From IMG/VR virus record IMGVR_UViG_3300045988_183453: 64,000 nucleotides of DNA; one strand, written 5' to 3'. Shown here in pieces: positions 86-49,732 of this stretch (positions are counted from its first letter, which is position 1; the number at the start of each line of letters is the position of its first letter). The stretch is from a virus. The notes below the pieces were generated by a model that saw only the letters and a list, made by a program, of their open reading frames with translations, had not been told where the DNA came from and ran no database searches. Made by a program: the position numbers and the translations under genes.

Positions 86-1492
86 ATGGACAACTTTATG
101 AAAAGTGCCGCTATTTTGGGTGCTTGCCTTTGCTGTCTGACTGCTTGTAAAGGAAACAGCGGAAACAGCGACACGAATGCTAATAGCTCCACCGCGCCGA
201 CCCCGTCCATTCAAAGTACATCGGAACCGTCATCAAATCCCGATATCGGTGGTGAAGTGGATACATCAGGCGGCACCCAAATGAAAGACGGTGAAATCGT
301 TCTAACCAAGCTTAATGTCAAAAACCCGAACAACCTCGATTGCAACGGATACAAGGAAGTGAAAATGGGCGATGGCTCTCCTTTATATAAGGAGAAGGCT
401 CAGGTGATAGAAAGCATGGGCTTGATTCCGTATACGGATGATAACGGAAACGGCCTTGAGATTTTCAGCGGCCATACCGTGTATCTGCGTCCGAACCCGG
501 AACACATGGAGCCGGAAGAGACTCCCGTTCCTGACGATGAAGCCTCGGAAAGTGAGACTGTGGATGAGACGGAGACTTCCTCCGATGACTCCGCGTCAAG
601 TGAAGAATCCGATGGCACGGTTTTGGGCGTTGATGAGAAGGATATCGTTTCGGAATCCGGACACTTTGATGCTGATGGGAACTATGTTGTCGATAGAGTG
701 AGCACGACTGGATATGACGATTCGAACGGCTATAGCGTTGACGATGAATATTTGAAGTGCATTGTTTCCGGTGAGGAAGTCTATGAGCTTGATAAGGATT
801 CGCTTGTCATTGATTATCCAACAGATTTTTCACAGCTTCGAAAAGAAGGTTCCTGTGAACGGCTTTACATCTTCGGCACCCAGGAAGATTACGACCAGGC
901 AATCAAGAATCGAGAAGATGGTCAGGCTATCCTGAAAGGTGAAAAGACTGCTCCTACGAAATGCGTTATCTTGAACGGTTCTTTGGTGCCCGGGATGCAC
1001 TTCTCCATCAATAGCGATGGCCGCTTGTGCGTTTCGGTTCGTGCGTTGGCTGAGGCTTATGACAGCAATACGCAGTATGCGGAAGACGCAGGTCTTCTCT
1101 ATGTTCCCATCACTTATGGGCATTGGGAATATGTGCCGTCCGCAAGAGCTTTGACCAAAGCAAGCGAGTATTTTGAAATCCACGGTGACAGGAAAAACTT
1201 CAAATATACGTCGCGCAATACATCGTATGCCTGGACCGATACGATGACGCTGGCCCAAGATAATACGTTCACAATGCCGATTGAAGACGTTTCGAGAATC
1301 TTTGGCTGGGAATTCTGGTACAGCGATAATATTTTGAAGGTCGTCACGGATTCTCTTGACGATACAAACCCTAACAACTTTATCTTGCAGGAAGTGGATA
1401 CGACCGTTACAGAAGGAGAAGTTGAGGATTTGGATACTTCCGACAGCGAAGAAGAAACCGAAAACACTGACAGTGAGGTGGACAACCAGTGA
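86..1492 (+). CDS. Acidic Ser/Asp/Glu-rich lipoprotein, unknown function
   Basis: ORF of 468 aa. An alternative start at 104 (MKSAAILGACLCCLTAC) gives a signal peptide plus LTAC lipobox; low-complexity acidic repeats. Confidence 0.6.
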   Translation: MDNFMKSAAILGACLCCLTACKGNSGNSDTNANSSTAPTPSIQSTSEPSSNPDIGGEVDTSGGTQMKDGEIVLTKLNVKNPNNLDCNGYKEVKMGDGSPLYKEKAQVIESMGLIPYTDDNGNGLEIFSGHTVYLRPNPEHMEPEETPVPDDEASESETVDETETSSDDSASSEESDGTVLGVDEKDIVSESGHFDADGNYVVDRVSTTGYDDSNGYSVDDEYLKCIVSGEEVYELDKDSLVIDYPTDFSQLRKEGSCERLYIFGTQEDYDQAIKNREDGQAILKGEKTAPTKCVILNGSLVPGMHFSINSDGRLCVSVRALAEAYDSNTQYAEDAGLLYVPITYGHWEYVPSARALTKASEYFEIHGDRKNFKYTSRNTSYAWTDTMTLAQDNTFTMPIEDVSRIFGWEFWYSDNILKVVTDSLDDTNPNNFILQEVDTTVTEGEVEDLDTSDSEEETENTDSEVDNQ

Positions 1493-5493: not shown

Positions 5494-6827
5494 GTAAAGA
5501 AGAGCAGAAGCCAAATATTTATCAAATCCCCAAAAACTCGTTTGATACCGGGTATGTGTTGAACGGACAATTCAAAACTCGGAACTTCGTTGAAGGTATC
5601 ATCCTGGCACTACCGTTCTTGGGAATTTTCATTTATGGATGGCATGATTTGGGATGGGATGTACAAAGTACCGTGGCCTATTGCGCAATACTCTGTGCTG
5701 CTGCTTTCCTTGGTGCAGCTCATGGTGTTGGCGGCGATAGCTTGTTTGAGTTTATTCAACGTGTTATCCGTTTCCGGCAAAGTCGCAGAATCTCAAAATA
5801 CAATCCTCGTATCAAAACCGAACTTGAACCGGAATATCTGATTCATGACGGGCGGATGCTCCCGAAAGACAAGCTCAAGCAAATGCTTGGCACTGTAAAG
5901 GGAAAAGTCCTTGGTGAAGAGAACGGTCCTATCAGTTCCGATATTACAGATGAAGAGCTCAAGGTCTTCTACGATGATGACTATGGGTTCCTGGAAAAAC
6001 CGGATGCCCTCAAATCTAAAGCAGAACTCCGTGCTGAAGCAAAACAGCGTGCGAAAGAAGAGAAGGAATACATTAACTCTTTGCCCCGTTCTGAACGCAA
6101 GGCTGCTAGAGAAAAAATTAAGCGTAAGCGTGAGCAGGAAGAGGCTGAGAAGAAGGCAAAAGAGGCAGAGCGCGAACGCATTATTAACGAAGCTATCAAG
6201 AAGCGTCTGGATAAAGCCGAGCGTGTTAAGACCGCACAGTATTACGAGAAGTTCATGGACCCCGACAATGAGCAGGAAGATGACAAGCTGGAAGAGAATA
6301 ACGCTGAACTGAATCCTCAGGCTGTAGAGTTCAAGCCCGTCACTGTAGGGCCGAGCAATAATGTGGTTCAGGATGATGTCGATATCTTTGACAGTGAAGA
6401 AAGCATCGACACCGATGAAGTAGAAGCGAATGTGGAAGCAGATGCGGATACAGAGCTGTTTGAGGACGGCACTGATACCGACATCCAAGCCCCGCAGATT
6501 GATGATGTAGTCTTTGACGATGAAACGGAAGTACTTGACGTCGATGAGGACTGGGATGACTTATCGGTTGATATCCAGGATACTCAGTCTGCACAGCCCG
6601 CAAAGCAGGGCAGGGGACAAGTCGTGAACAGCGATGACGATGTCAGCTTGGATGATGTAGACCTTTTCGATGACAGCACGGTCAGCCGCACAGAGGAAAG
6701 ACCTCAGAACGTCAAAACCTCTGGAAAGACGATGGGCTCGCAAAAGCAGCCGCAAACCACACAGAACAACAGCGATATTGATTATATGTCCTTGAATGAC
6801 ATTTCTATCTTTGATAGTGAGGAGTGA
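5490..6827 (+). CDS. Membrane protein, possible VirB3/PrgI/TcpE-like T4SS component with acidic C-terminal tail
   Basis: RBS GGGGG then ATG at 5490 (MSKEEQ...). Two TM helices near the N-terminus and a long D/E-rich tail; lies immediately upstream of the VirB4-like ATPase. Confidence 0.5.
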   Translation: MSKEEQKPNIYQIPKNSFDTGYVLNGQFKTRNFVEGIILALPFLGIFIYGWHDLGWDVQSTVAYCAILCAAAFLGAAHGVGGDSLFEFIQRVIRFRQSRRISKYNPRIKTELEPEYLIHDGRMLPKDKLKQMLGTVKGKVLGEENGPISSDITDEELKVFYDDDYGFLEKPDALKSKAELRAEAKQRAKEEKEYINSLPRSERKAAREKIKRKREQEEAEKKAKEAERERIINEAIKKRLDKAERVKTAQYYEKFMDPDNEQEDDKLEENNAELNPQAVEFKPVTVGPSNNVVQDDVDIFDSEESIDTDEVEANVEADADTELFEDGTDTDIQAPQIDDVVFDDETEVLDVDEDWDDLSVDIQDTQSAQPAKQGRGQVVNSDDDVSLDDVDLFDDSTVSRTEERPQNVKTSGKTMGSQKQPQTTQNNSDIDYMSLNDISIFDSEE

Positions 6828-6832
6828 AGCCT

Positions 6833-9493
6833 ATGTTTCGATTCAAAAATGGCGGAGAAATCCCCCACGGTGTTGTGGAACAGAGTATCGGTACAATCCC
6901 GCTGACGAAAAAGGAACGCGATGAAATCGCCAAAGAAGAGCGGCGGCGGATGAATCAAAAGCTGGAAGCTCAGAATGAGCGCTATCAAATCATTCGAAGC
7001 ACACAGCGTATCATCCCTATTGAGGATATTTACGGCGGCATTGTTGTGACAAAGGACCACCGATATATCAAAATCATGGAATTTCGCCCTATCAACTTTG
7101 CCTATATGGACGCGGAAACTCAAAACCGTATTATTTCGCTTTTCTATCAAACGTTCAAAGCAACTCCCTGCAATATCCAGTTCAAAACCTTTTCTCGTAA
7201 AGCTGATGTCGAGAATTCAATCGCGACCGTGACGGACTATTACAAAGCAGAAAAGAATCCGAGTCGTAAGCGAATGCTGCAGGCATACATCGGATTGCTT
7301 CGTAAGACGGCTTTGTCCGTTGGTATTACCCGTCGCTTCTTTGTGGTCGTAGAATTCCAGCGCACTATCAGCAACGATGGTTCTAAATTTGAAATGGTTG
7401 TGGCCGACTTGAATGCCGTTGCGGCAAACGTCCGCTCTCACATGGAACAGTGTGGTAATATCTTTATTCCTGCACTTGGTAACCCTGACGGAAACGAGGA
7501 CGCAGGTCTACACCAGCTTTTTTACCAGCTCTTGAACCGTAGAAAAAGTGAGACCATCACGTTCAAGCAGCACATGGACCCCATTGTGGACCGTTATTTT
7601 GAAGCCGAAAAGAATGGCGTTAAGACGTCTTTGCAGGCAACGGAACTGATTGCTCCGGACTGGATTGACTTTACGCATCACGATTACATTGTCATTGATG
7701 GCAAGTTTTATACTTTCGCTTACATTCCCTCGAACGGGTTCAGCCAGCGTGTCTATGCGGGCTGGGTGGCTACGTTCGTAAATGCTGGTGAAGGCATTGA
7801 CGTCGATATGTTCTTTGAGCACATGTCCCGTGAAGCTGTCTTCAATAAAATCAGTACACAGCTTCGTCTGAGCCGTGCAAACGCCATGGACAGTCACGAT
7901 ACTGACTCTGACTATCAGGCGCGTATGGAAAAAATTTCGTCCAGTGAATATATGCTGCGCGGCCTTTCCAGCGGCGAAGAGTTCTATTACCTGTCAATGC
8001 TCATCACTATCGTGGCAGATACAAAGAAGGAACTCGATTACAAGTTCGATGCTTTGAAAAAGCGTATCGAAGGTCAGAGCATGAAGATTCGCCGTGCGGA
8101 TTTCATGATGGAAGAATGCTTCGATTCTTGCCTGCTTCCTCTTGCGAAAATCAATAAGGAGCTGGCAAAGAAATCTCATCGCAATCTTCTGACTTCGGGT
8201 GTTGCATCCTGCTATCCGTTCATCTCGTTTGAAATGCAGGACCCGGGCGGCGTTATGGTCGGTACAAACCATGTCAACAACTCTCTGGTCACCATCGATA
8301 TGTTTGATACCCGCGCTCATGCAAACGCAAACGCCGTTATCTTGGGCTCTTCCGGTTACGGCAAGACTTTCACCGCACAGCTGTTCGCACTACGCTTGTC
8401 TGAGATGGACACGCAGGTGTTTATCATCTCTCCTCTGAAAGGTTTGGAGGACTACGGCGGCGGTTGTAAGGCAGTCAATGGTCAGTTCGTCTCCATGGAC
8501 CCCTCTTCGGACAACAACATCAACATCATGGACATTCGCGCTCCTGACGATGAGGACGCAAAACTGCTGGATGATTATGAGGCTTCCGGTTCCTTCTTGA
8601 CCAAAAAGATTCACACGATTCTTTCGTTCCTGCACCTGGTTGTTCGCAATATGACGCAGGAAGAAGAGCAGCTAATTGACGGCTGCCTGTATGCGACATA
8701 CGCAAAGTTCGGCATTACCCGTGATAACAACTCTATCTACGATAAAGATGGCAACTATAAGGTGATGCCGCTGTTGGAAGATTTGCAGGAAGAAATGAGA
8801 AAAAAACCTGAACTGCATACCGTCTGCAACATCTTGAATCCGCTAATTAACGGTTCTATGGCTTGCTTCAATCACCACACCAACGTGGACCTTGACTCCA
8901 AGTACATCGTATTTGACTTCAATGGCATGAAAGGCTCTTTGCTTACCATGTCTATGTTCGTGGTTCTGGACTTTGTCTGGACGAAAATCAAAGAGGACCG
9001 TACACAGCGCAAAGCCGTATTTATTGACGAATGCTGGAAATTGATTGGCACTGACTCCAACGAGCAGGCAGCTGAAGACGTTGTTGAAATCTTCCGTACG
9101 ATTCGTGCTTATGGCGGTTCCGCTTTTGCTATGACTCAGGATATTTCTCAGTTCTACGAATACAAGGGCGGCAAATACGGCAAGGCAATTATTGGTAACG
9201 CCGATACCAAAATCATTATGCACCTGATTCCGTCCGAAGCAAAAGCCCTTCAGGAAGCCATTCAGCTGACCAGCGTTGAGATGGAAGCGGTATCCAGCCT
9301 GCCGCGTGGTCAAGGTCTGGTTTGCTCTGCATCCGCAAAACTGTTCGTCGATTTTGTGGCCGATGACTATGAAGCCAAGGAAATCACAACCGATGCTAAG
9401 TCCTTCTACGAACGCCGCAAGGCTCTGGAAAAGAAAAAGCGGGAAGAAGAAGAGAAGGCGGCGGAAAATACCGTCATTGATGTTGAAATGTGA
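6833..9493 (+). CDS. VirB4-family conjugal transfer ATPase (TrsE/TcpF/Orf16-like)
   Basis: Walker A VILGSSGYGKTF and Walker B VFIDECWKL; about 885 aa, a size typical for Gram-positive VirB4. RBS GGAGTGA before ATG 6833 (the track uses GTG 6824). Confidence 0.85.
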   Translation: MFRFKNGGEIPHGVVEQSIGTIPLTKKERDEIAKEERRRMNQKLEAQNERYQIIRSTQRIIPIEDIYGGIVVTKDHRYIKIMEFRPINFAYMDAETQNRIISLFYQTFKATPCNIQFKTFSRKADVENSIATVTDYYKAEKNPSRKRMLQAYIGLLRKTALSVGITRRFFVVVEFQRTISNDGSKFEMVVADLNAVAANVRSHMEQCGNIFIPALGNPDGNEDAGLHQLFYQLLNRRKSETITFKQHMDPIVDRYFEAEKNGVKTSLQATELIAPDWIDFTHHDYIVIDGKFYTFAYIPSNGFSQRVYAGWVATFVNAGEGIDVDMFFEHMSREAVFNKISTQLRLSRANAMDSHDTDSDYQARMEKISSSEYMLRGLSSGEEFYYLSMLITIVADTKKELDYKFDALKKRIEGQSMKIRRADFMMEECFDSCLLPLAKINKELAKKSHRNLLTSGVASCYPFISFEMQDPGGVMVGTNHVNNSLVTIDMFDTRAHANANAVILGSSGYGKTFTAQLFALRLSEMDTQVFIISPLKGLEDYGGGCKAVNGQFVSMDPSSDNNINIMDIRAPDDEDAKLLDDYEASGSFLTKKIHTILSFLHLVVRNMTQEEEQLIDGCLYATYAKFGITRDNNSIYDKDGNYKVMPLLEDLQEEMRKKPELHTVCNILNPLINGSMACFNHHTNVDLDSKYIVFDFNGMKGSLLTMSMFVVLDFVWTKIKEDRTQRKAVFIDECWKLIGTDSNEQAAEDVVEIFRTIRAYGGSAFAMTQDISQFYEYKGGKYGKAIIGNADTKIIMHLIPSEAKALQEAIQLTSVEMEAVSSLPRGQGLVCSASAKLFVDFVADDYEAKEITTDAKSFYERRKALEKKKREEEEKAAENTVIDVEM

Positions 9494-22760: not shown

Positions 22761-23013
22761 GAAATATGTCGAGGTCATTGCCGATTTCTCTCCTGAAGGC
22801 ATTTTGACACCGCAGACAGTCATCTGGGACACGGGCCAGAGATTCGATATCACCTGCATCTCGGAAGTGTTGCCCCGGAAATACTCGAAAACTGGCGGAG
22901 TAGGAGTTCGCTATGCCTGCCAGATAGGAAGAGCCAAAACATATCTGTTCTTTGAGGAGGACAGGTGGTTCGTGGAAGCAAAGGAAAATGCTGCAGCCGG
23001 AGACCCCTGCTAA
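22741..23013 (+). CDS. Small protein downstream of Y-polymerase, possible YolD-like accessory
   Basis: 90 aa overlapping the polymerase gene. Called from position and size only. Confidence 0.35.
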   Translation: MSEPRIKKYVEVIADFSPEGILTPQTVIWDTGQRFDITCISEVLPRKYSKTGGVGVRYACQIGRAKTYLFFEEDRWFVEAKENAAAGDPC

Positions 23014-23399
23014 AAATCGAAGAAATAATCGCCCGTCAAGACTCCACCAACTTCCATGGTCGAGTTTGGGTCGGGCTTGCAACCAGATTTGCAGCAGAAT
23101 GACTCCATTTCGGGCGTCAACACAGATTGGATAATAATGCGGTGTACGCCGTTTTCTTCGCAGATTTTCTTTAAGGCAAAAAGTATCGCTGTCATCGTAC
23201 CACAACGTTTGTGAGCAAACTCAACGCGAGAAAGAACCAATGCAAAATTTCCAAGGAAAGCAACACGCAGCTCATTTTCCCCGTCGCTAGAAGTAATCCA
23301 AATAGTACGCATACTGTTGGAAACACTGCAATGACAGTCTTGCTTGCTCTCGATAGTATCTACAAGTTGTTGTATTTGCTCTTTCGTAAGCTCAAGCAT
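23010..23399 (-). CDS. Hypothetical protein, possible GNAT-fold
   Basis: Start MLELTKEQ chosen after the RBS GGAGG; the track start is an upstream TTG. Weak GNAT-like core (HKRCGTMTAIL…). Confidence 0.35.
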   Translation of the reverse strand: MLELTKEQIQQLVDTIESKQDCHCSVSNSMRTIWITSSDGENELRVAFLGNFALVLSRVEFAHKRCGTMTAILFALKKICEENGVHRIIIQSVLTPEMESFCCKSGCKPDPNSTMEVGGVLTGDYFFDF

Positions 23400-23494
23400 A
23401 CCTAAAGCCTCCATCATTTTTTGGTTGTAAAAATTATACCACAAACAGTGTCAAGCAGACGAAGTGATTTTGCAACGAAAGGAGAAGAAACAAG

Positions 23495-24025
23495 GTGAAT
23501 AGCAAATACCGAGAGCAAACCTGCTGCTTTGTTGGGCACAAGGATATCCCACCGGGCGAGCAGCTCAAAATATTGGCCAGGGTGGAACACCGGCTTATTC
23601 CACTTATCCAGCAGGGAGTCACTTACTTTGGTATCGGCGGTTCTTTAGGTTTTGATACTCTTATGGCGGATATGCTGGTTTCGTTGAAAGCAGCACATCC
23701 CCGAATTCGCGTTATTGAGGTTTTGCCTTTTGAGGGATACCGTTCTAAATGGAGCTTAGAACAGCAGCGGCATGCCGAGAAAATAGACAAGCAGGTAGAC
23801 AAAATAGTATATGCTGCGAAAGAACCAGGCAGGGGAGTATACCTTCTAAGAGACCGACATCTAGTCGATTACTCTGCTTATTGTATCTCCTATTGCACAA
23901 GGACTACCGGCGGCACGGCATATACGGTGAAATACGCTCTGGAACACGGCATAACGGTGTACAACGCCTCCAGTTTCGATGTGAGCGCCTTGCTTCAGGC
24001 CCGACCGCTTGCGAAGAACGGATGA
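23495..24025 (+). CDS. DUF1273/SLOG-family (YoqJ-like) protein
   Basis: CCFVGHKDIP … GIGGSLGFD … TGGTAYT. Rossmann-like SLOG pattern, common in prophages and plasmids. Confidence 0.55.
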   Translation: MNSKYREQTCCFVGHKDIPPGEQLKILARVEHRLIPLIQQGVTYFGIGGSLGFDTLMADMLVSLKAAHPRIRVIEVLPFEGYRSKWSLEQQRHAEKIDKQVDKIVYAAKEPGRGVYLLRDRHLVDYSAYCISYCTRTTGGTAYTVKYALEHGITVYNASSFDVSALLQARPLAKNG

Positions 24026-24106
24026 AAAAGCGCCCTTGCACAAAACATGAGGGAGATTTCCTGGCGTTTGGAAAAAGCACCCCTATGACTTTGAGCTTTG
24101 CCGCAC

Positions 24107-24145
24107 AAAAAGCGAGCCTCCGCTCTTTGGCGGGGGCTCTTCTTG
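24107..24145 (+). terminator. Rho-independent terminator
   Basis: gagcctccgctctttggcgggggctc followed by ttcttgtattc. Confidence 0.5.
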
Positions 24146-24279
24146 TATTCTCAAAAACGTTGAATTCAATTTCACTGAATTCCGATTCAGCATTATTTGG
24201 CGTGGCTCAGCTTGGCCCGGTAGCACGATACCATGGCGGCCGAACACAATGATTCTCCAGAACGGAATTCTCGACATTC

Positions 24280-24298
24280 GGTGCGAATCGTATATAAT
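24280..24298 (+). promoter_or_regulatory. Promoter carrying the element-wide spacer motif (GGTGCGAATCGTATATAAT)
   Basis: TCGACA-N16-TATAAT with GTGCGAATCG in the spacer. Confidence 0.55.
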
Positions 24299-24330
24299 CT
24301 AAATAATAAAACAGTATAGGAATATAGCTA

Positions 24331-24372
24331 AGCCGCCAAGCGAGTGAAATCGTTTGGTGGCTTTTCTTTTTG
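24331..24372 (+). terminator. Terminator closing a short RNA about 65 nt from promoter 24280
   Basis: gccgccaagcgagtgaaatcgtttggtggc followed by TTTTCTTTTT. The tail GGTGGCTTTTCTTTTTG recurs at 16095 and 47440. Confidence 0.5.
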
Positions 24373-24395
24373 CTACGGAAAAGTAGACATTGTAC

Positions 24396-24470
24396 TTGTC
24401 ATGAGCTTGTTGCATACTTGCTACGAACTTGCTAAAAACTTGCTAAGCACTTGCTACGCTTCACCTCGAA
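24396..24470 (+). repeat. Iteron-like direct repeats ACTTGCTA (4 perfect copies plus 2 degenerate) at 10-11 bp spacing
   Basis: acttgtcatg agcttgttgcat acttgctacg aacttgctaaa aacttgctaag cacttgctacg. The last repeat forms a hairpin with gcaagt, followed by T9. Confidence 0.6.
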
Positions 24471-24978
24471 GCAAGTTCATTTTTTTTTGCGCGAAAGAAT
24501 ATCGGATAAGTGACGCTTCCTACTCGTATGACCGAAAGAAAACATGCAAAGACTCTACCATTCTGGTAGGGCTTTTTTGCTGCCCAAAAAGTTGGAAAAA
24601 TGTCGCAAGCGAGCCGCTGAAACCTCGGAATTTTGTCGCAGCCTTTCCGAATATGAGATGTATCTCACAAAAGCGAAATGCGCTGCTTCGTATCTGTGGT
24701 GAGACAATCGGAACAGGCGAATAGCAAAATCTCAGCTGCCGCAAATGCTGTCAAGTTCAAATCACAACTCCCAAAAGTTTCGTTTGGGAAAGCCTGCATT
24801 AAAAGTTTCGTTCTGGAAAATGCAGAGGGGAAAGGAAAATGCCGAAGCATATATGCACTGATTTTCTTCTTGCTATTTGTGCAATCCGCTCAAATTGGCG
24901 ATAAATATTCCCAAAATAAATAAGTCAAAGTGCTTTTGGTGTATAATGGCTCTGACAAACAGAAAAAAGGAGAACACT

Positions 24979-26061
24979 ATGAAAAAGGTTGTATCATTAG
25001 CACTTTCGACTTTGCTCGTCCTCTCGTTGGCTGCCTGCGGCAAGGCGAATAGTTCCGCTGCAACAGCCGCAAGTGAATCCAAGTCAAGTGCTTCGTCAAA
25101 TAGCACTTCCAATAGCACGCAAGATTACAGCCCTGACGGGATTAAAGTAGGAGAGACATATACTACAGAAGACGGCAAAACATATGAAAGGGTGTGGAAC
25201 GGCACAGGCAGCGATTTACCTACGCCGTCCCCCGAACCCAAAATTACATACGATAATGATTTCCAGGCACAGACACTTGTTGATAATGAAGAATGCACCA
25301 TTATCTTGCAGAGCGTTGGTTACGATGATGATTACGGCTATTATTGGAAGCTTTATTTCAAGAATAAGACATCAGATAAAAAACTCGGTTACTCGTTTGA
25401 TGACTGCACATTGAATGGCGTGGGTGCGAGCCTTTGGCTTACGAGTGTTGAACCTGGTCAAGAGGAAACGGAGATTCATCATTGGGAAAGTTCCGGGCTT
25501 AAAATTTATAACATCAATCCGCAGGATATCAATACGGTAAGTTTTTATCTCGATGTCTATAACGAATTAGATTATGATGTTATCCCACGGCATGACTTTG
25601 TTGATGACGATTTCGTGGTTTATCCAAAAGGGGAAGAAAACGCAACCGAGCCAAAGCATGAAACCCAACCCACAGACCTCGTACTGGTTGATAATGACGC
25701 TTGCGCCCTGATGATTTGTGGATTTGACCCCAACGGCCTACACGGTTATACGGCCAAAGCTTACATAGAAAACAAGACGGATAAAGAAATCATGTTTGCC
25801 TTTAGAAGCGGAGGCTCTATAAACGGTTTTGAGTGCTTCCCTGAAACAGATACAATGGGAATTGATGCGCACACTAATGCCTATGTAGACATCTACTATT
25901 ACGATTATTTAGATACTTATGAGGCCAACGGTAAAGACCCCACCTCTGTCACCGAAATGGTGATGCCAATCGTTATAAACAATTCCAGCACTCGGGACAT
26001 CTATGTAGATGAGACTTTCACTATTAACCCTCAGACAAATTCCGTGACAACATCGGAATAA
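24979..26061 (+). CDS. Lipoprotein, paralog A (internally duplicated domain)
   Basis: MKKVVSLALSTLLVLSLAACG lipobox with RBS AAAAGGAG. Two internal repeats (…CTIILQSVGYDDDYGYYWK… and …ACALMICGFDPNGLHGYTAKAY…). Confidence 0.7.
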   Translation: MKKVVSLALSTLLVLSLAACGKANSSAATAASESKSSASSNSTSNSTQDYSPDGIKVGETYTTEDGKTYERVWNGTGSDLPTPSPEPKITYDNDFQAQTLVDNEECTIILQSVGYDDDYGYYWKLYFKNKTSDKKLGYSFDDCTLNGVGASLWLTSVEPGQEETEIHHWESSGLKIYNINPQDINTVSFYLDVYNELDYDVIPRHDFVDDDFVVYPKGEENATEPKHETQPTDLVLVDNDACALMICGFDPNGLHGYTAKAYIENKTDKEIMFAFRSGGSINGFECFPETDTMGIDAHTNAYVDIYYYDYLDTYEANGKDPTSVTEMVMPIVINNSSTRDIYVDETFTINPQTNSVTTSE

Positions 26062-26218
26062 TTTGACGCCCTCCTGCGATTAAAATTATTAACTTTCCCG
26101 GGCTTCGTTTGCAACTTTGTAAGTAAAGGTTTCGTTCTGGGAAAACACGGTGGAAAAGTAAAATGTCGAAGCGCTTTTGATGTATAATAGCCTTATACAA
26201 AGAAAAAAGGAGAAAATC

Positions 26219-27241
26219 ATGAAAAAGGTTGTATCATTAGCACTTTCGGCTTTGCTTGTACTTTCCCTGGCCGCCTGTAGCAGCTCTAACACTACCAGTA
26301 CTGCTGCCAGCAGTGCAGCTACATCTGATGCTGCATCCTCCGAGGAAAGCACCAGCGACTCTTCAACGAGTACTGCAAGTAGTGCTGCCGATAATGCAAC
26401 GGCTGAACCCGACATCCAGTTCGATGAGAGCTTCCAGCCACAGACGATTGCCGACAACGATACCTGTACCATCATCTTGCAGAACGTGGGTTATGATGAC
26501 AGCTATGGCTACTACTGGACCGTTGATTTCCAAAATAAAACGGATGACAAAACTCTTTGCGCTATCACAAGCAGCTCGTCCTTGAATGGAATCCCGGCAG
26601 ATACCAGTTGGTTCCCGGAAATTGGACCAGGAGTGAAAACCACCGAGGTCGTTTCGTGGGATAAAGCAGGACTGGAAATCTATGGAGTGAAACCGCAAGA
26701 CATCGATACCGTCAAACTTCACATCGATGTCTATGATGAAGCAGAATGGGATGTGTCGAATCGTGATGACCCTGTCGATGATGACTTTGTGATTTATCCG
26801 AAAGGTGAAGAGAAAGCGACAGAACCAAAACACGAGATTCAGCCCACGGATATTGTGCTGTTCGACAATAATGCCTGCAGCATGGTCGTTTGCGGATTTT
26901 ATTCTGATAGTTTCATGGGCTATACGGCAAAAGCCTACTACGAAAACAAAACCAACGACCGTATCAATGTCATTCTGGACAAAGGCTCTATCAATGGTTT
27001 TGAGTGTACCCCGGAAGGGACAACGCTGCTGGAACCACATTCTAACGCCTATATTGATATTCGTTGGCAGGAATATGCCGAAACCTACGCAGAAAATGGC
27101 AATGACCCAACATCCATCACAGAAATTGTAATGCCAGTTTTTGTGAGAAAAGACACAGGGAGCAATACGGTATACATTGACGCCACTTATTCCATTGACC
27201 CACAAGCAAGAACAGCAACGCCGATAGTGAATCCCCAATGA
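26219..27241 (+). CDS. Lipoprotein, paralog B of 24979..26061
   Basis: MKKVVSLALSALLVLSLAAC. Motifs colinear with paralog A (CTIILQNVGYDDSYGYYW, DFVIYPKGEEKATEPKHEIQPTD); the upstream ~100 bp is also duplicated. Confidence 0.7.
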   Translation: MKKVVSLALSALLVLSLAACSSSNTTSTAASSAATSDAASSEESTSDSSTSTASSAADNATAEPDIQFDESFQPQTIADNDTCTIILQNVGYDDSYGYYWTVDFQNKTDDKTLCAITSSSSLNGIPADTSWFPEIGPGVKTTEVVSWDKAGLEIYGVKPQDIDTVKLHIDVYDEAEWDVSNRDDPVDDDFVIYPKGEEKATEPKHEIQPTDIVLFDNNACSMVVCGFYSDSFMGYTAKAYYENKTNDRINVILDKGSINGFECTPEGTTLLEPHSNAYIDIRWQEYAETYAENGNDPTSITEIVMPVFVRKDTGSNTVYIDATYSIDPQARTATPIVNPQ

Positions 27242-27353
27242 TAGCCGCATAATTTTCCAAAGCCAAAAAAATTCTTGGGAAAACAGCAAAACTTTTCTGA
27301 GTTCAAAAAACTTTTAGTATTTTTGGGAAAAGTTTTCTGGAACGGAAAATATT

Positions 27354-27395
27354 AAAGCGCTCACCATCTTCGGTGGGCGCTTTCGTGTTTATTCT
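27354..27395. terminator. Bidirectional terminator
   Basis: aaagcgctcaccatcttcggtgggcgcttt with T-rich flanks on both strands. Confidence 0.55.
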
Positions 27396-28918
27396 TCAGT
27401 TTTCTTTTTCAGCCACTGCCTTCTAACGAACGGCGTTACATAGGTTTCATCACTCTTCAGCTCATAGCCATAGCTTTCAGCTATCAGGATGGCACGTTCG
27501 CTTGCTTTCTGTCCGGCAGGCAGATGGCGAATGAAACCATTGATGTTTTTGGACGAAGCATCATATTTGGACTTGTCGAACACCCGCAGCGGCTCGTCGT
27601 CATCATTGCCTTTCTTGCGATAATCGCGGGGCTTTCCGCCAATCATCAGACAACGAATCCCGAATGGAGTATCCGCGTGTGTCACAAACGAAGACCGGAA
27701 CGACGCATCAGTGGGCAGGACATCCGGCAAATCACAGGCGAGAGAAGTGTACAGCCAGAGAATCAGATTCGTGACGCTGTCAACCAGCTCTGGAAATTGA
27801 GCCCGGTCAGTCAAAATATAAAACCACTCGGTGCTTGTGTTATAGTATCCGGCCAGGTCACCAAACTTGGTTACGATTTTATACAGACACACAATCTCGT
27901 TGTCGCGGCAAGTCTCTTTCAGCTTAATTTCCTGTATCAGCTGGCAGGCATCAAACTGAAACAATGCACCGTTGGCGGGAAGAGTTCTGCGGCGATGGTG
28001 CAGCGTATCTTTCAGAAACTCTGTCGTATATTTGGGTGAGATGGGCTTTGGCCACCAGGACCACATGTTCGGAGTATTCTCAATCAGCGGCTTGTCCGGC
28101 AGCATGTCCACGGTATACTCGTTCACATAGGTAGCCATCGAAAGGACTGTGTTCGTATACAAATGTGAGAGCAAAGCGAGGTTGTTGATGCTGTCGAAGT
28201 CGGCAACGCCCTCATAACCATAACGCTTATAGTACGAAAAGACCATATCCAAGCGTCTGTCTTCAGAAATCTGAGATTCACATTTGTCGTATGGCCGATT
28301 GTTGAAAAGAGCATCACTATAATAGACAGGAACATCGGCGAGGGGATAGGGGTCCCGGATGATGATTGGCTCGTTCTCAGTTGAGATACCGACAATGTTG
28401 TTCACAATATCGAATTCCTGAGGCTTGAGGTATTCGCTCCCCTGCATCAGCATATCGATTACCGCGTACAGGACAGAATCATTACGTTCCACATTTCCGT
28501 CAATGGTCAAACCTAAATGAACGCATTCCTGCGCATAAGCAATAGCCTTAAAATACAAAGCATAGTCCTTATTCTTCTTGATGGGCTTTGTGAGCTCCTG
28601 CAAGAACCGATGATATCCCTTGATGAATTTATCAGAGTTCGCCATGGCAAGCTCTACCTGAGAGCTGACGGCCTCAATGATGGGTTTGCACTCCTCAGCT
28701 TCACGGACCAGGTGAAAGAGGAAAGTAGATGCTTTCCCAAAATCCATGTCATGCAATGTCGTCGCAACCTGGCAAGCGCTGGACAGGGTTCTTCTCTGAA
28801 ATACCCAGATAGACTCGCCTTTGCTCCGATACTTCTTATCCCATACCGGTGCGTATTTATCGACTAAGGCATTACCGAAATCTTCCTGCACTGCCAAAAC
28901 ACCATTTTCGTTCTGCAC
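27389..28918 (-). CDS. Hypothetical protein (509 aa)
   Basis: Long ORF, last in a 3-gene minus-strand operon; no motif recognised. Confidence 0.55.
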   Translation of the reverse strand: MQNENGVLAVQEDFGNALVDKYAPVWDKKYRSKGESIWVFQRRTLSSACQVATTLHDMDFGKASTFLFHLVREAEECKPIIEAVSSQVELAMANSDKFIKGYHRFLQELTKPIKKNKDYALYFKAIAYAQECVHLGLTIDGNVERNDSVLYAVIDMLMQGSEYLKPQEFDIVNNIVGISTENEPIIIRDPYPLADVPVYYSDALFNNRPYDKCESQISEDRRLDMVFSYYKRYGYEGVADFDSINNLALLSHLYTNTVLSMATYVNEYTVDMLPDKPLIENTPNMWSWWPKPISPKYTTEFLKDTLHHRRRTLPANGALFQFDACQLIQEIKLKETCRDNEIVCLYKIVTKFGDLAGYYNTSTEWFYILTDRAQFPELVDSVTNLILWLYTSLACDLPDVLPTDASFRSSFVTHADTPFGIRCLMIGGKPRDYRKKGNDDDEPLRVFDKSKYDASSKNINGFIRHLPAGQKASERAILIAESYGYELKSDETYVTPFVRRQWLKKKTEE

Positions 28919-30326: not shown

Positions 30327-30625
30327 TGTTTTTCTCCTCCCACAATTCTTTCTAACATAATTATATCATATTTTACAGATGGACGGGCCAAAATCGCAAC
30401 TTTGTTCATGAATACTTAAACTTTATGCACGAGATTTATTGTTGCCCTAATATATAAAACTAGAACCCCGTCATCTTGGATGGGGCTCTTGAGTTGTAAC
30501 TGGAGGTGTATCTCATTTTGTGCCAGGGGTATTGTATGGTAGTTTTCGAAAATGAGTGCAAAAAAACAAACACCAGAAGTCGAACTCAAAAATATCTTAG
30601 TCTTGGCAAGTTTACCCTTGCGCCG

Positions 30626-30645
30626 CTGTGCGAACTTCGTACAAT
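30626..30645 (+). promoter_or_regulatory. Motif promoter P1a (TTGCGC-N16-TACAAT, spacer CTGTGCGAACTTCG)
   Basis: ctgtgcgaacttcgtacaat. Confidence 0.55.
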
Positions 30646-30651
30646 AAGAAT

Positions 30652-30786
30652 TGTACAAGAGAAACGGCAAGAGACATTTGTAGTGATTATAGTTGGTCGC
30701 CACGAATCGATGCCGTGTCTGCTTGCGCATAATTACCTCTTTTCGAAGCCCACAGGTCATTCTCTCACCTGTGGGTTTTGTTTATT
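30652..30786 (+). ncRNA. Candidate short RNA (~135 nt) between P1a and a strong intrinsic terminator
   Basis: Terminator hairpin cccacaggtcattctctcacctgtggg (30748-30773) plus TTTTGTTTATT. No credible ORF with an RBS. Confidence 0.4.
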
Positions 30787-30794
30787 GCGGAATC

Positions 30795-30812: not shown

Positions 30813-30883
30813 TAAAGACAGAGCGATTGTGAGATGGGGCGATACCGATGCAGTAGGGATGAGAATCTTAGCAGCTAAAAGAG

Positions 30884-30958
30884 TCAACAACCCCGCCTAA
30901 ACCGGTTCACCGGTTATAGACGGGGCTTGCGGGGTAACCCGTAAGCTCGGTTGATTAG
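30884..30958 (+). ncRNA. Conserved structured RNA-like module, copy A
   Basis: caacaaccccgcctaaaccggttcaccggttatagacggggcttgcggggtaacccgtaagctcggttgattagcc. Nested hairpin (ccccgcc[aaccggt-ttca-accggtt]ggcgggg) plus hairpin gcttgcgggg-taa-cccgtaagc. About 92% identical to 43118-43195. Confidence 0.45.
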
Positions 30959-31138
30959 CCTAAGTCTGCTGCTCCGGCGGCAGGAAACTACGTTGTGTAC
31001 TAATAATATAGGCACCTTATCCATGCTCCACAAGTGGTGAGCTCTGCAGGCGTTTCGTTAAACATCTCCGAGGGGAGGAGAAGTGCGAGCGTCATGTCGA
31101 AAGGCTAAAACAGTGCATAACATTGGCGAAGTGGACCA

Positions 31139-31178
31139 CAGGACGCAAGTCCTGACTTATAGTTTTATTACTATTTTA
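31139..31178 (+). terminator. Possible leader terminator before the flotillin gene
   Basis: caggac-GCAA-gtcctg hairpin followed by a U-rich tract (acttatagttttattactatttta). Weak. Confidence 0.35.
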
Positions 31179-31198: not shown

Positions 31199-32842
31199 AT
31201 GGTATATGTGATTGGAATTGTAGCAGCCCTGATTATTCTCTTTGGATTTCTCTGCTACAAGAAAGCTCCGCCCACGGAGGCTATCGTTGTAACTGGCTTT
31301 GGCCTGTCTAAGCCTAAAGTGGTTTGCGGAAAGGGTACATTTGTTCTGCCCGTTCTTCAACGGGCTGACCGACTGAATATGCGCCTTTTGAAAATCGATG
31401 TCAAGACTCCTGAAACAGGTGTTAAGACGAAGAACGGCGTAAGTCTCTGGATTGACTCTGTTGTCACGATTCAAGTCTACAGCGAAAACTCTACCGTTCT
31501 GGATGAAGAAGTGAAGGCATCCGGTCTGAAAGACGCCAAGGCGTACATCATGTCCCGACAACAGGCAGCCATCTCGAACTTTCTGGGCATGAACGAGCAG
31601 GGCATCAATGAGAAAGTTAATGACGTTCTGCAGGGCAATTTGCGTGAGATTGTCTCTGACATGACCGTTGACCAAATTCTGACGAACCGCAAGCAGATGG
31701 CTGTGAGCGTTATCGAGAATGCTCGCCCCGACCTTGCTAAGATGGGACTTGAGGTCGTGACTTTTAATGTCCAGGACATCAGGGATGCAGTGGATGTTCA
31801 AGGCCACAATCACGGCGTTATCGAAGCTATCGGCATTGAACAGGAAGAGCTTGTGAAAAAACAGGCTGAAATTGCCCGTGCTCAGGCTGCCCGTGATGTA
31901 GCCTGCGCGAAGGCCGATGCTGAGATGGCTGCAAATGCCAAGGAAGTTGAAGCGCAGACTGCGATTGCAAAACGCAACAATGAATTGCAGCTCGCCAAGG
32001 CAAAGCTGAAAGCTGAAGCTGATAAAGCTGCGGCTGACGCAGATGCTGCCGGTCAGATTCAGATGAATCTCCGCGCCAAAGAAATCAAAGAAGCGGAAGC
32101 GGATGCTGAAATCGCCAAGCAGAAGAAAATGGTAGACCTTGCCGCACAGGAAGCCGAGGTCCAGCAACGCAAACTGGATGCGGAAGTCCGCAAACAGGCA
32201 GATGCTGACCTGTACCGCCGCCAGAAAGAGGCAGAAGCCAAGAAATATGAGGCGGAACGTGCAGCTGAGGCACAGAAGTTCTCCAAGCAGCAGGAAGCAG
32301 AAGGCATTGAGCTTGTCGGTAAGGCAGAAGCTGAAGCGATTCGTCAGAAAGGCTTGGCTGAAGCGGAAGCCATGAAACAGAAAGCAGAGGCATATAAGCA
32401 GTATAACGATGCGGCTGTGGCTGAAATGCTCATCAAGGTTCTTCCTGACATTGCCAAGAGCGTGGCTCAGCCTTTGTCCAGCATTGATAAGGTTTCTATC
32501 ATTGGCGGTGATGCCTCCGGCGTATCCGGCGTTTCCGGGAACGTTCCTATCCTGATGGCTCAAACCATGCAGACGGTGAAAGAAGCGACCGGCATTGACA
32601 TGGGCGAAATTGTCCGTGCCAACAGCATCCAGGCAAAGACAGACCGCAACATCAACATTATGACTCAATGTGAACAGCCTGAGAATAACAAAGAGAAAGG
32701 AGGTGCCAAGGCAATGGAACGCGTAGAAGGCGGCTATCTGATTCATGAGAAGAATCTCAACGGTGAGGAAGTCACTCATTTTCGACCGGATGTGACCGAA
32801 GAAGAGAAGGCTATCATGAAAGACAAAAAGGCCAAAGATTAA
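31199..32842 (+). CDS. Flotillin-like SPFH/band-7 protein (FloT/YuaG-like)
   Basis: N-terminal TM, SPFH domain, long Ala/Glu-rich coiled coil (AEAEAIRQKGLAEAEAMKQKAEAYKQY); 547 aa. Confidence 0.85.
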   Translation: MVYVIGIVAALIILFGFLCYKKAPPTEAIVVTGFGLSKPKVVCGKGTFVLPVLQRADRLNMRLLKIDVKTPETGVKTKNGVSLWIDSVVTIQVYSENSTVLDEEVKASGLKDAKAYIMSRQQAAISNFLGMNEQGINEKVNDVLQGNLREIVSDMTVDQILTNRKQMAVSVIENARPDLAKMGLEVVTFNVQDIRDAVDVQGHNHGVIEAIGIEQEELVKKQAEIARAQAARDVACAKADAEMAANAKEVEAQTAIAKRNNELQLAKAKLKAEADKAAADADAAGQIQMNLRAKEIKEAEADAEIAKQKKMVDLAAQEAEVQQRKLDAEVRKQADADLYRRQKEAEAKKYEAERAAEAQKFSKQQEAEGIELVGKAEAEAIRQKGLAEAEAMKQKAEAYKQYNDAAVAEMLIKVLPDIAKSVAQPLSSIDKVSIIGGDASGVSGVSGNVPILMAQTMQTVKEATGIDMGEIVRANSIQAKTDRNINIMTQCEQPENNKEKGGAKAMERVEGGYLIHEKNLNGEEVTHFRPDVTEEEKAIMKDKKAKD

Positions 32843-38474: not shown

Positions 38475-38493
38475 GTGCGAATTGCAGACAATC
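38475..38493 (+). promoter_or_regulatory. Motif promoter P3 (TGTGCGAATTGCAGACAAT) with a structured ~125-nt leader
   Basis: TTGCCC-N16-GACAAT. The leader has hairpins cccacgatttcaatcgtggg and ccgcatacaaggcagcgagttatgcgg. Confidence 0.55.
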
Positions 38494-38620
38494 AGAATTG
38501 ACACCTCCCACGATTTCAATCGTGGGATTCCCGGGTGGCGGTGGCAAGGCTTATCACCATGCCGCATACAAGGCAGCGAGTTATGCGGTTCCCCACCATC
38601 CGCTACGGGTGTAGCGCACA

Positions 38621-38866
38621 ATGAGCATCCAGCCTAAAAGGGTAAAGCATAAAGCAGTCAACAAGGTAAACCTTAATCCGGGTGATTTAGTCTCTCTCAA
38701 CGGAGAAGTTCTCGTTGTGCATGGTACTCATACCAATAAAAAGGGTGCTGTAAATGTAGAATTCAAAACACCCGGAAAAAGCGGTCAAAAATCTGCAAGC
38801 CTTAAAAAACTTAAAATTGTAAAAGCAGCAGATTCCATGCATTCTGCATGGGAAAAAATATCTTAA
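38621..38866 (+). CDS. Hypothetical small basic protein
   Basis: 81 aa ORF. Confidence 0.45.
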   Translation: MSIQPKRVKHKAVNKVNLNPGDLVSLNGEVLVVHGTHTNKKGAVNVEFKTPGKSGQKSASLKKLKIVKAADSMHSAWEKIS

Positions 38867-42748: not shown

Positions 42749-42823
42749 GAAATTTTTTCCCGTGTGAGCAGTGACGCTCATGCGGGAATTTTTTGTAATT
42801 TTCTATTGTCAATCTGTGCGAAT

Positions 42824-42843
42824 TGCGTACAATGAAAAATATA
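42824..42843 (+). promoter_or_regulatory. Motif promoter P5 (CTGTGCGAATTGCGTACAAT)
   Basis: TTGTCA-N16-TACAAT. Confidence 0.6.
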
Positions 42844-42866
42844 AACCAAAAATATATCTTATCGTT

Positions 42867-42903
42867 GTCCCGCATGAGTTGTTTGTGCGGGACTTTTTGT
42901 TTG
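42867..42903 (+). terminator. Leader (promoter-proximal) intrinsic terminator / attenuator
   Basis: gtcccgcatgagttgtttgtgcgggac followed by TTTTTGTTT, between P5 and the start codon at 42921. Confidence 0.55.
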
Positions 42904-44505: not shown

Positions 44506-44707
44506 TGCTTGCAATGCATTGCGGGTTCCATATAATTAAAACCGTAATCAAAAAGAACTATCTTTTGCGAGGACTCCGTTGCCGACGGTGTTCTCGTTTT
44601 CTTTTTTCAAGACAAAAGGCTGCCGCCCAGTAATGGGTAGCAGCCTTCTTTTTTTTGATTGTGTCAGCCAATATGGCAGCAAATCACCTTACCGCGTTCA
44701 GAACGAT

Positions 44708-47340: not shown

Positions 47341-47352
47341 ACTTGACCTGAT

Positions 47353-47370
47353 GTGCGAATTTTATACAAT
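47353..47370 (+). promoter_or_regulatory. Motif promoter P7 (TGTGCGAATTTTATACAAT)
   Basis: TTGACC-N16-TACAAT. Confidence 0.55.
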
Positions 47371-47455: not shown

Positions 47456-47458
47456 TTT

Positions 47459-47477: not shown

Positions 47478-47500
47478 TAAATCAAACGGAGGAAATTACC

Positions 47501-49708: not shown

Positions 49709-49732
49709 AACCCTAATAAGATAAAAATTGTG

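Follow-up and report, generated by a model that had tools for sequence, protein, structure and literature searches.

The 93 nt at positions 24280 to 24372 of IMG/VR virus record IMGVR_UViG_3300045988_183453 hold a promoter, a short transcript, and a terminator, and they raise the question of whether such a unit belongs to a family of regulatory RNAs. We analyzed a 64,000-nt stretch of this record (the window), in which a first-pass annotation had described three loci of one microarchitecture and had read them as either a family of small RNAs (sRNAs) or a shared riboregulatory leader. In window coordinates, these loci are L1 (24282-24372), L2 (47377-47459), and L3 (54909-55012); other L-numbers denote related contigs. 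The promoter and the hairpin with its T-run are present at all three, but the RNA is not common to them: L3 is a predicted member of a leader family, L2 is perhaps a degenerate relative, and L1 stands outside. The family itself appears to be a large, previously undescribed group of structured leaders standing before hundreds of accessory genes of giant conjugative elements from the human gut, and its members probably act as on/off transcription gates.

The leader family and its promoter

The leaders are numerous. In IMG/VR, the pattern TACAAT-N6-TGTACGANAGATA was found in at least 119 stretches, nearly all of them in 27- to 390-kb contigs of one gut data set; among the matches listed, there were up to four per 11 kb, and the 88 distinct instances formed 29 sequence clusters with one common layout. 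The metagenome pattern TGTACGATAGATA-N25-45-TTCACAAT occurred in at least 120 stretches of human-gut assemblies. A covariance model (R1) built from 25 leaders, none of them from the window, gave 188 matches at E ≤ 0.01 (the E values are rough, as the calibration was shortened) in 816 kb of related gut loci, so that the homologs sought as a check on the family proved abundant elsewhere. These matches reach up to eight per 14 kb on one strand, a density that is an upper estimate in loci L165 and above, which were picked by a pattern containing the start motif and are biased upward. A further 31 matches came from 902 kb of loci picked without reference to the leader.

The family layout begins with an invariant start (UGUACGAUAGAUAnCA; in DNA, TGTACGATAGATAnCA), followed by a variable hairpin region, tCGTACA, and AATTCACAATy. 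The 3′ half continues with TGC or CGC (3 to 5 bases), a short linker, a terminator whose 5′ arm carries GCrGACTT (GCrGACUU in RNA), and a T-run. A near-invariant, single-stranded box, AAUUCACAAU (AATTCACAAT in DNA), follows the three-way junction that the 5′ part typically forms.

The same promoter is present in all 83 distinct leader upstream regions, and its distance is fixed, with 6 nt between its end and the leader. It is of the sigma-70 type, with a −35 element TTGnCn, a 16-nt spacer centered on a near-invariant TGCGAA, and a −10 element TAyAAT; across loci, the consensus reads TTGnCn, N5, TGCGAA, N5, TAnAAT. In the 83 upstream regions, conservation amounts to 92 to 96% for TTG, 92 to 93% per position for TGCG, and 89 to 92% for the −10 positions, and TGCGAA occupies positions −23 to −18. 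Within the window, the pattern TRCGARNNNNRTAYAAT has nine exact copies against 0.03 expected, and the motif promoter described earlier was found at all three loci, with TGCGAA at 24282 and 47354 and TACGAA at 54900. Allowing ≤2 mismatches yields 22 window matches (5.7 expected), and about 17 copies at one or two mismatches are convincing. All copies lie within 21 to 64 kb, all but one of them on the plus strand, and none was found in the type IV secretion (transfer) gene region at 1 to 19 kb.

A terminator close to the promoter is a systematic property of this promoter family. Before any start codon and within 145 nt, 8 of the 17 window promoters (24282, 30629, 42817, 44520, 47354, 49692, 54900, and 59305) have a terminator with a folding free energy (ΔG) of ≤ −12, compared with 6.1% of random 145-nt windows (P = 2.7e-6 [binomial]), and across the window and related loci, a downstream terminator with a ΔG of ≤ −8 is found in 62 of 108 distinct promoter-plus-downstream instances. 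The module thus extends well past the three loci to which it had first been limited.

What follows the leaders indicates how they are placed. A Shine-Dalgarno sequence and the start codon of an open reading frame (ORF) of at least 40 codons lie behind 110 of the 112 distinct leaders with full flanks, at a median distance from leader to start codon of 24 nt (interquartile range, 20 to 29), and a family promoter intervenes between leader and gene in only 3 of the 112. For this reason, we regard the element as a 5′ leader with an attenuator and not as a free-standing sRNA gene. Of the two earlier proposals, the shared leader therefore stands, with L3 inside and L1 outside it, and the sRNA family becomes the weaker alternative. 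Most genes placed behind leaders have no known function; a few encode a GmrSD N-terminal domain or a 5′-nucleotidase (NT5C) domain.

Covariation, proposed as a check on the original three loci, was found in the wider family. A model-fitted alignment of 102 distinct sequences shows 96.8% pairing in the terminator helix; 9 of the 13 pairs are changed on both sides, and the covariation score of the helix was reached by none of 500 shuffles. An independent MAFFT alignment gave similar values (93.9% paired; two-sided changes in 8 of 12 pairs). The helices contain many G-U pairs, with UG in 78 of the 102 sequences at one terminator pair. RNAalifold run on the MAFFT alignment recovered the terminator alone, as the variable hairpins were misaligned, and the two further helices described below, a closing helix and an antiterminator, were specified by hand.

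The closing helix joins the first 7 nt, UGUACGA, to UCGUACA about 40 nt downstream and is 95.5% paired. It is supported by deviant 3′ strands that still complement their 5′ strand: in L217, where TGTACAA is opposite TTGTACA, a G-C pair has become A-U by compensatory change, and L233 closes in another register, ACGATAGA with TCTATCGT (−9.8 kcal/mol; background fraction, 0.3%). Among 38 nonredundant 5′ domains, the mean fold z score is −2.5, with 30 domains below −2, and the 5′ end lies in a closing helix in 36. The typical fold is a three-way junction with a small hairpin on UAGAUA, which has several complements, and a G+C hairpin whose sequence differs between leaders. Over the first 16 transcribed bases, invariance is at least 95%, in spite of changes in the bases with which they pair.

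The candidate antiterminator consists of UyYGC, located after the box, paired with GCRGA, the first five bases of the terminator 5′ arm. It is 88.9% paired, against 22 to 63% in slid controls; one of its pairs is CG in 39 cases, UA in 30, and UG in 10, and its covariation score was reached by none of 500 shuffles. The same terminator column covaries with its terminator partner and with the antiterminator, which is the signature expected of mutually exclusive helices. On the 102 distinct sequences, the antiterminator is moderately supported.

Known RNA families did not account for the leaders. Rfam 15, applied to the window at the gathering threshold, returned only a HEARO match, and E-value scans of L1, L2-L3, the canonical locus L201, and a 211-nt canonical module gave nothing but terminator-like matches far below threshold. 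BLAST searches with the module in PLSDB and INPHARED found no match, and the start motif was not found in the literature searched.

The three loci and other modules of the window

The hairpins and T-runs of L1, L2, and L3 (24330-24372, 47415-47459, and 54969-55012) have ΔG values of −23 to −26 kcal/mol, and the whole-leader fold z scores are −4.9, −3.4, and −5.8, respectively. Global alignments of the three leaders and terminators gave modest similarity (z scores of 1.4 to 4.5), dominated by the order of a stem followed by a T-run. The (A)TAGGAwT box that had been thought to unite the loci occurs at chance level, with 9 matches to TAGGAWT against 12.7 expected, and the nearly identical terminator tail, GGTGGCTTTTTCTTTT, holds for L1 and L2 but not for L3, which ends in GGTCCGCTTTTTTTGTTG. 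With ≤3 mismatches, this tail has 4 matches against 1.06 expected, a number reached by 2 of 100 shuffles. L2 and L3 share an exact AGATACTA, a 9-nt gap, and an exact TAGGATTCACA, located 31 nt (L2) and 30 nt (L3) from the promoter; the 11-mer occurs exactly nowhere else in the window. As had been described, lipoprotein genes lie behind these two loci and iterons behind the third.

We consider L3 a diverged true member of the leader family, predicted to gate an MBL-fold lipoprotein gene. Its promoter (54889-54916, plus strand) has a −35 element TTGCCA, TACGAA at 54900-54905, and a −10 element TACAAT at 54911-54916. The leader (54909-55012, plus strand) comprises the start TGTGAACAGATAC at 54923-54935, the box ATTCACAATCTG at 54951-54962, the terminator at 54969-55003, and the T-run at 55004-55012, and model R1, which contains no window sequences, matches all of it with 35.8 bits (E = 5e-5). 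Both the box and a GCrGACTT-type terminator arm (GCGGACTT) are present, and the closing helix differs in that UGUGAA pairs with the UUCACA box. The gene has a Shine-Dalgarno sequence, starts with the ATG at 55027, 15 nt after the T-run, and encodes a lipobox FTGC. In contigs L233 and L253, a canonical start precedes a signal peptide of similar appearance, and the 3′ half is that of L3. In three siblings of the window's own lineage, a canonical leader scoring up to 100.8 bits (L035, 1933-2041; L385, 1331-1439; L387, 813-921) heads an extra four-gene cassette, including a radical-SAM protein, right after the MBL lipoprotein gene. In window terms, the insertion point is at about 56.2 kb, and the window is without the cassette.

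L2 is perhaps a degenerate relative. Downstream of its promoter (47343-47370, plus strand; −35 TTGACC, TGCGAA at 47354-47359, −10 TACAAT at 47365-47370), the leader (47377-47459, plus strand) has the start TGTACGAGAGATA at 47377-47389, a TTCACA box, a terminator at 47415-47450, and a T-run at 47451-47459. The start, TGTACGAGAGATAC, matches the invariant start at 12 of 13 positions, and a small hairpin pairs AGATACTA (47385-47392) with TAGGAT (47402-47407). The start motif, the TTCACA box, and the small hairpin are all that it has in common with the family, and the R1 match at 47377-47456 is marginal (15.4 bits; E = 0.63). No complementary 3′ strand for the closing helix was found in L2, where the duplex of −1.4 kcal/mol is at background level; the box, GATTCACAC, is partial, and the terminator arm is AAGCTGCTCGG, the GCrGACTT arm of the family being absent. 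The terminator is kept via compensatory changes among about 10 variants.

A second promoter (47460-47517, plus strand; TGCGAGTTGCGTACAAT, without a −35 element) abuts the T-run of L2 and is followed by a Shine-Dalgarno sequence and the ATG at 47501 of the lipoprotein gene (lipobox LAGC). This arrangement is kept in all L2-type variants. As the second promoter lies between them, the terminated RNA of L2 is uncoupled from the lipoprotein gene, and L2 may function as a decaying attenuator or as a stand-alone RNA. The second promoter itself (47460-47476) has the spacer motif TGCGAG and a good −10 element, and the terminator T-run fills the position where a −35 element would be. Because the spacer motif and −10 occur there without a −35, there is a hint that TGCGAA may stand in for −35 recognition via an activator or sigma-like factor, rather than being a repressor operator.

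L1, the locus that prompted the question, has a family promoter (24271-24298, plus strand; −35 TCGACA at 24271-24276, TGCGAA at 24282-24287, −10 TATAAT at 24293-24298) and a short transcript (24299-24372, plus strand) made of an unstructured A/T-rich stretch with TATAGGAAT, a terminator stem at 24330-24363, and a T-run at 24364-24372. The hairpin has a ΔG of about −23 kcal/mol, and the whole-leader minimum free energy is −24.6 kcal/mol. Model R1 gave no match to L1 at E ≤ 10 with filters off, and neither the family start motif with its closing helix nor the box nor the GCrGACTT arm was found there. In 2.4 Mb of related DNA searched, the L1 leader and terminator are confined to the orthologous positions of L156, L157, L159, and L163.

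The surroundings of L1 differ between sibling elements. Ten sibling contigs share an identical upstream YpsA-like protein, and the L1 promoter is kept. In 6 of the 10 (L155, L158, L160-L162, and L164), the start of a 241-aa metallophosphatase gene follows the promoter after about 30 nt, whereas the other 4 are arranged like the window, with a short leader, a terminator, and iterons. The phosphatase and the terminator/iteron/lipoprotein arrangements are homologous up to about 15 nt past the −10 element and not beyond, and promoter 24282 thus heads two alternative cassettes, an example of how these promoters mark mosaic junctions. Directly behind the L1 terminator, no ORF was found, only an iteron-like array (24416-24476, plus strand) of four 11-bp ACTTGCTAnnn repeats (ACTTGCTA) at 24416-24458 and an inverted AGCAAGT at 24470-24476. 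The repeats are spaced by one helical turn, and sibling L157 has a single copy. The array resembles a binding site for protein, of an operator or centromere-like kind; no gene for replication or partition was found beside it, and it belongs to the cassette that took the place of the phosphatase gene. L1 is best read as an orphan promoter-terminator unit, in which a family promoter was fused to a foreign terminator where the iteron/lipoprotein cassette replaced the phosphatase cassette. We also considered L1 as the remnant of a phosphatase deletion and rejected this, as the sibling phosphatase genes do not have the L1 terminator behind them and that terminator occurs nowhere else.

The other terminator-bearing promoters of the window, all on the plus strand, head modules of several kinds. 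The module at 42806-42900 has a 30-nt leader, which lies outside the structured family, a terminator at 42867-42893, and a Shine-Dalgarno sequence with an ATG; that at 49681-49778 has a short leader and a terminator at 49730-49767 and lies upstream of a UvrD-like helicase gene (Pfam); and that at 59294-59420 has a leader of about 70 nt and a terminator at 59387-59412, upstream of three multi-helix-turn-helix (multi-HTH; Mor-like) genes. The module at 30618-30790 has a 135-nt long-hairpin leader starting with TGTACAAGAGAAA and a terminator at 30745-30779, with a second promoter at 30796. An orphan module at 44509-44655 consists of a promoter variant and tandem terminators at 44569-44595 and 44616-44647. 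In this unit (44509-44708), the terminators are followed by the 3′ end of a convergent 628-aa minus-strand gene, and the second hairpin, flanked by an A-run and a T-run, looks bidirectional.

What the leaders may do

The family leaders probably act as on/off transcription gates, and we see an even chance that they do so as cis-acting attenuators opened by a factor through local antitermination, as opposed to trans-acting sRNAs. By default, most transcripts would end at the leader terminator after about 65 to 135 nt (about 65 to 105 nt for the structured leaders), as suggested by the position of a strong terminator ahead of the ribosome-binding site, and the gene behind would be expressed only when the terminator is bypassed. 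A trans-acting factor, most likely an element-encoded RNA-binding protein (or a ligand), would bind the junction domain and the AAUUCACAAU box. Its binding would stabilize the weak UyYGC/GCRGA antiterminator and let RNA polymerase enter the cassette gene, and all such cassettes would constitute one regulon, expressed, for example, on entry into a new host. Read-through is more likely local than processive, because a cassette-end terminator immediately precedes 27 of 87 module promoters.

Several observations weigh against this account. The 5′ strand of the closing helix is invariant, and two-sided covariation is almost absent from that helix; the invariance of the first 16 bases beyond what pairing demands points to a role for them at the level of DNA or RNA polymerase. 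The antiterminator helix is only 5 bp long, its covariation could partly reflect subfamily descent, and on a 32-sequence alignment it was not distinguishable from shuffles. Modules 42817, 49692, 59305, and 44520 have a terminator without a structured leader, so a leader-RNA mechanism cannot explain them. No NusG, ANTAR, CAT, Q, or other antiterminator domain was found by Pfam among the roughly 50 window ORFs scanned, and a PDB sequence search with a 317-aa multi-HTH protein likewise produced no antiterminator candidate. Start sites, termination efficiency, and read-through are all deduced from the sequence, and the copy density per element carries the upward bias described above.

An account that needs no dedicated regulator would fit the Pfam result. 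In this scheme, attenuation is constitutive: the terminator scales down a strong shared promoter, and the 5′ helix stabilizes the mRNA by blocking 5′ exonucleolytic decay. A paired 5′ end is the classic 5′ stabilizer architecture in Firmicutes, and it is what 36 of the 38 nonredundant leaders have; in addition, the promoter is constant while the leaders differ widely between modules. However, with stems of −17 to −26 kcal/mol and 5 to 8 U's after them, the terminators give the impression of full efficiency, which tuning does not need, and the near-invariant AAUUCACAAU box, the GCrGACUU arm, and the upstream copy of the 3′-arm sequence are left unexplained. We regard constitutive attenuation as unlikely, if the best placed of the alternatives to a factor-opened attenuator.

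Somewhat less likely still is promoter-loaded, processive antitermination of the Q type, in which a DNA-binding factor at TGCGAA would join a polymerase paused at TACGAT (about +3 to +8) and make it resistant to terminators, with RNA structure being secondary. The promoter with its conserved spacer is the sole feature common to all terminator-bearing modules, including those outside the leader family at 42817, 49692, 59305, and 24282, and the at least 95% invariance of the first 16 bases despite varying partners suggests just such a DNA- or polymerase-level role. The layout also resembles lambda PR′, where Q binds an element located between −35 and −10, the pause element is AACGAT, and a terminator lies downstream. 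Like the textbook lambda Q unit, the module has a constitutive-looking promoter, a conserved element between −35 and −10, a close terminator, and a short RNA as the default product, and the initial transcribed −10-like hexamer is TACGAT in canonical members, at about +3 to +8, where the textbook lambda sequence is AACGAT. However, lambda has one such promoter per phage serving a long operon processively (textbook), whereas here there are dozens per element, each with its own terminator and in many cases a cassette-end terminator as well, and the lambda Q unit has no need for the conserved RNA structure that the module has. Roughly every second promoter with this spacer motif is not followed by a terminator, and the −10-like hexamer is lost in L1, L2 (TACGAG), L3 (TGAACA), and the noncanonical modules. 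A processive complex would ignore the cassette-end terminators that precede 31% of the module promoters, no Q-like protein was detected among the ORFs scanned, and the conserved box, closing helix, and terminator arm would be left unexplained.

The sRNA proposal takes the terminated 65- to 105-nt transcripts as the products, with AAUUCACAAU as a seed, or as decoys that titrate a host or element protein. The anatomy is typical of bacterial sRNAs, with an own promoter, a structured 5′ part, a single-stranded conserved stretch, and a Rho-independent terminator, and the efficient terminators would make the short RNAs abundant. Moreover, a second promoter separates L2 from its gene, and no gene in the same orientation directly follows L1 or the 44520 unit. 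Against this, 110 of 112 family members precede a start codon and its Shine-Dalgarno sequence by a median of 24 nt, which leaves no room for a promoter and makes the genes dependent on read-through; the sequence of L1 is also unrelated to the family, and no target complementarity was identified by inspection, the only means used. We consider trans action improbable as the main function, although an sRNA by-product role may exist alongside the cis function.

Least credible by a wide margin is that the modules are cassette-boundary recombination sites, folded in single-stranded DNA like integron attC and only secondarily similar to promoters and terminators: their position at mosaic junctions (the alternating cassettes behind promoter 24282, with a breakpoint about 15 nt past the −10, and the radical-SAM cassette with its canonical leader inserted after the MBL lipoprotein gene) and the variable central hairpin between conserved ends would suit such sites, but promoter, terminator, and Shine-Dalgarno signals are complete, correctly spaced, and always on the coding strand, the frequent G-U pairs would turn into A-C mismatches in the opposite strand, the arrays were not seen to have an integrase beside them, and homologous recombination over about 60 nt of near-identity explains the mosaicism without a dedicated site.

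The element, its regulon, and known parallels

We assign the window to a conjugative, plasmid-like element of very large size from human-gut Clostridia. We base this on two Pfam matches, one at 1489-3657 to a type IV coupling protein and the other at 6824-9493 to a VirB4-like ATPase, on window-identical proteins found on human-gut metagenome contigs of 128 to 282 kb, and on the nearest catalogued relatives of the VirB4 protein, which belong to megaplasmids of Subdoligranulum variabile and Vescimonas fastidiosa (38% identity). These VirB4 relatives make Oscillospiraceae the likely hosts. In the public assembly collection, 1,556 blocks contain one of the neighboring proteins, and the contigs concerned are at least 200 kb long (up to the 0.2- to 1-Mb class). 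Megablast of positions 23000 to 27500 against phage and plasmid collections found no match, and a genome-contig search with the UvrD-like helicase found only distant, unrelated loci, none with the promoter motif.

From about 21 kb on, the window is a long run of mostly plus-strand accessory genes. This accessory, anti-defense-rich half is arranged as gene cassettes, each headed by one copy of the element-specific promoter. Between 36248 and 56187, the anti-defense-like cargo includes a PLD nuclease, an AcrVA2-like protein, NADAR, a weak Macro match, RlaP, the UvrD-like helicase, and the MBL/Apyc1-like lipoprotein. In sibling contig L028 (1-3018), type I-C cas genes (Cas5d, Csd1, and Cas7) replace the RlaP region of the window.

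At 59416-62387, three consecutive genes encode tandem HTH units (Mor, HTH_23, and HTH_28-like), up to six of them in the 317-aa multi-HTH protein, and are followed by an AAA ATPase gene. This operon, which has its own promoter and leader terminator in front, is the most conserved block across sibling elements and would be the obvious candidate regulator of the promoter family, at the promoter level.

Promoter variants also stand before genes of other kinds. Downstream of the HEARO (IscB omega-RNA) match (96.4 bits; 30883-31141), positions 31199-32842 hold an ORF of IscB size, and both the match and the ORF lie behind the variant TGCGAATTGCAGACAAT at 30796, right after the 30629 promoter with its 135-nt hairpin leader and terminator. 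A TnpB/OrfB_IS605 gene begins at about 63430 and runs off the window end, with the variant TGCGAATTGCGTACCAT in front (63377-64000); the promoter type of the element thus also heads IS605-family guide-RNA nuclease genes. At 38476, TGCGAATTGCAGACAAT is followed by a 128-nt G+C-rich 5′ untranslated region (38493-38620) and an 81-codon ORF (38621-38866), in place of which sibling contig L033 has a 147-aa Mor-family gene. We suspected a known RNA in this untranslated region, but an Rfam match was absent.

A global repressor could use the TGCGAA motif as its operator, in the manner of the kor regulon of RK2, a matter separate from the question of the terminators. Such control is also known from the EGeRS2 promoters of p576, which are regulated by Reg (PMC8708921). 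EGeRS1 and EGeRS2 are establishment gene regulatory sequences of the Bacillus conjugative plasmids pLS20 and p576 (PMC8708921), and the EGeRS idea of the pLS20 family appears to be the closest concept for the module. In both cases, one conserved regulatory sequence stands before several variable operons, mostly of unknown or anti-restriction function, on a Gram-positive conjugative plasmid; the EGeRS operons are confined to one plasmid region and thought to form an establishment regulon (PMC8708921), and the modules here, likewise confined to one region, may form such a regulon too. Further likenesses are to EGeRS2, with its strong sigma-A promoter, and to EGeRS1, a highly structured sequence that blocks read-through (PMC8708921). 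EGeRS2 differs in its ribbon-helix-helix repressor, which acts on dual TTATCCC heptamers flanking the promoter (PMC8708921); the Reg dual heptamer TTATCCCnnTTATCCC has no exact copy in the window, and its 8 matches with ≤3 mismatches (4.2 expected) include none at a family promoter. EGeRS1 is 400 to 750 bp long, G+C rich, and without a sigma-A promoter, whereas the module here comprises about 45 bp of promoter and a leader of about 100 nt with an intrinsic terminator. There is no sequence similarity between EGeRS and the module, and the copy number per element is much higher here.

In common with the BglG/LicT-RAT, ANTAR/EutV (PMC3369931 and PMC3369936), HutP, and PyrR systems, the 5′ leader contains a conserved RNA element just ahead of an intrinsic terminator and overlapping its 5′ base. 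The weak antiterminator, which would need a bound factor, is also as in RAT/ANTAR-type systems, and the control of several terminators by one regulator at the eut locus (PMC3369931 and PMC3369936) is a further likeness to the module set. Unlike these systems, no protein with a CAT, ANTAR, HutP, or PyrR domain was found among the roughly 50 ORFs, and the module, which has no RAT sequence and no dual-hexaloop signature, starts at the first transcribed nucleotide and is fused to one promoter. The tandem hexaloop hairpins of ANTAR targets (A1 and G4) were not found in the leaders, the loops of which are UACCAU-like or variable, of 3 to 6 nt.

The put RNA of HK022 is a single-copy processive antiterminator RNA at the head of a phage operon. 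Like conAn of pLS20 (PMC8191782) and canT of Tn916 (PMC11658703), the module is a mobile-element RNA near the transcript 5′ end that would let polymerase past intrinsic terminators, and here, too, terminators would keep element genes silent until the right moment. However, conAn (PMC8191782) and canT (PMC11658703) are single-copy, processive elements at the head of a long operon, whereas the module is repeated before individual cassettes. Unlike with conAn, canT, and put, the terminator here belongs to the conserved unit, and the module is absent from the type IV secretion region at 1 to 19 kb.

The module, then, is a transcription-attenuating 5′ leader in kind, and it is unusual in its one dedicated promoter, its compact three-way junction from +1, and its very high copy number on one mobile-element class. 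More tentatively, and with the odds somewhat against it, it may represent a new class of multicopy riboregulator, an approximately 45-nt three-way-junction RNA fused to a dedicated promoter and its own terminator, placed before dozens of anti-defense and establishment cassettes per element and switched by an element-encoded RNA-binding antiterminator or a small ligand. If so, a giant gut plasmid could switch all of its accessory genes on or off together, as a single regulon, for example, in the first minutes in a new host, and the invariant first 16 bases together with TGCGAA would couple initiation to the RNA switch, which is undescribed for known attenuators.

The promoter and leader provide a sequence handle for finding establishment and anti-defense cassettes of unknown function in metagenomes, as EGeRS does for pLS20. 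The leaders could also be used as a new structured RNA family for Rfam and as a compact promoter-attenuator part for the engineering of Clostridia. If the leader is indeed a regulated gate, it would represent the control logic of the accessory, anti-defense half of a very widespread megaplasmid-like family of the human gut.

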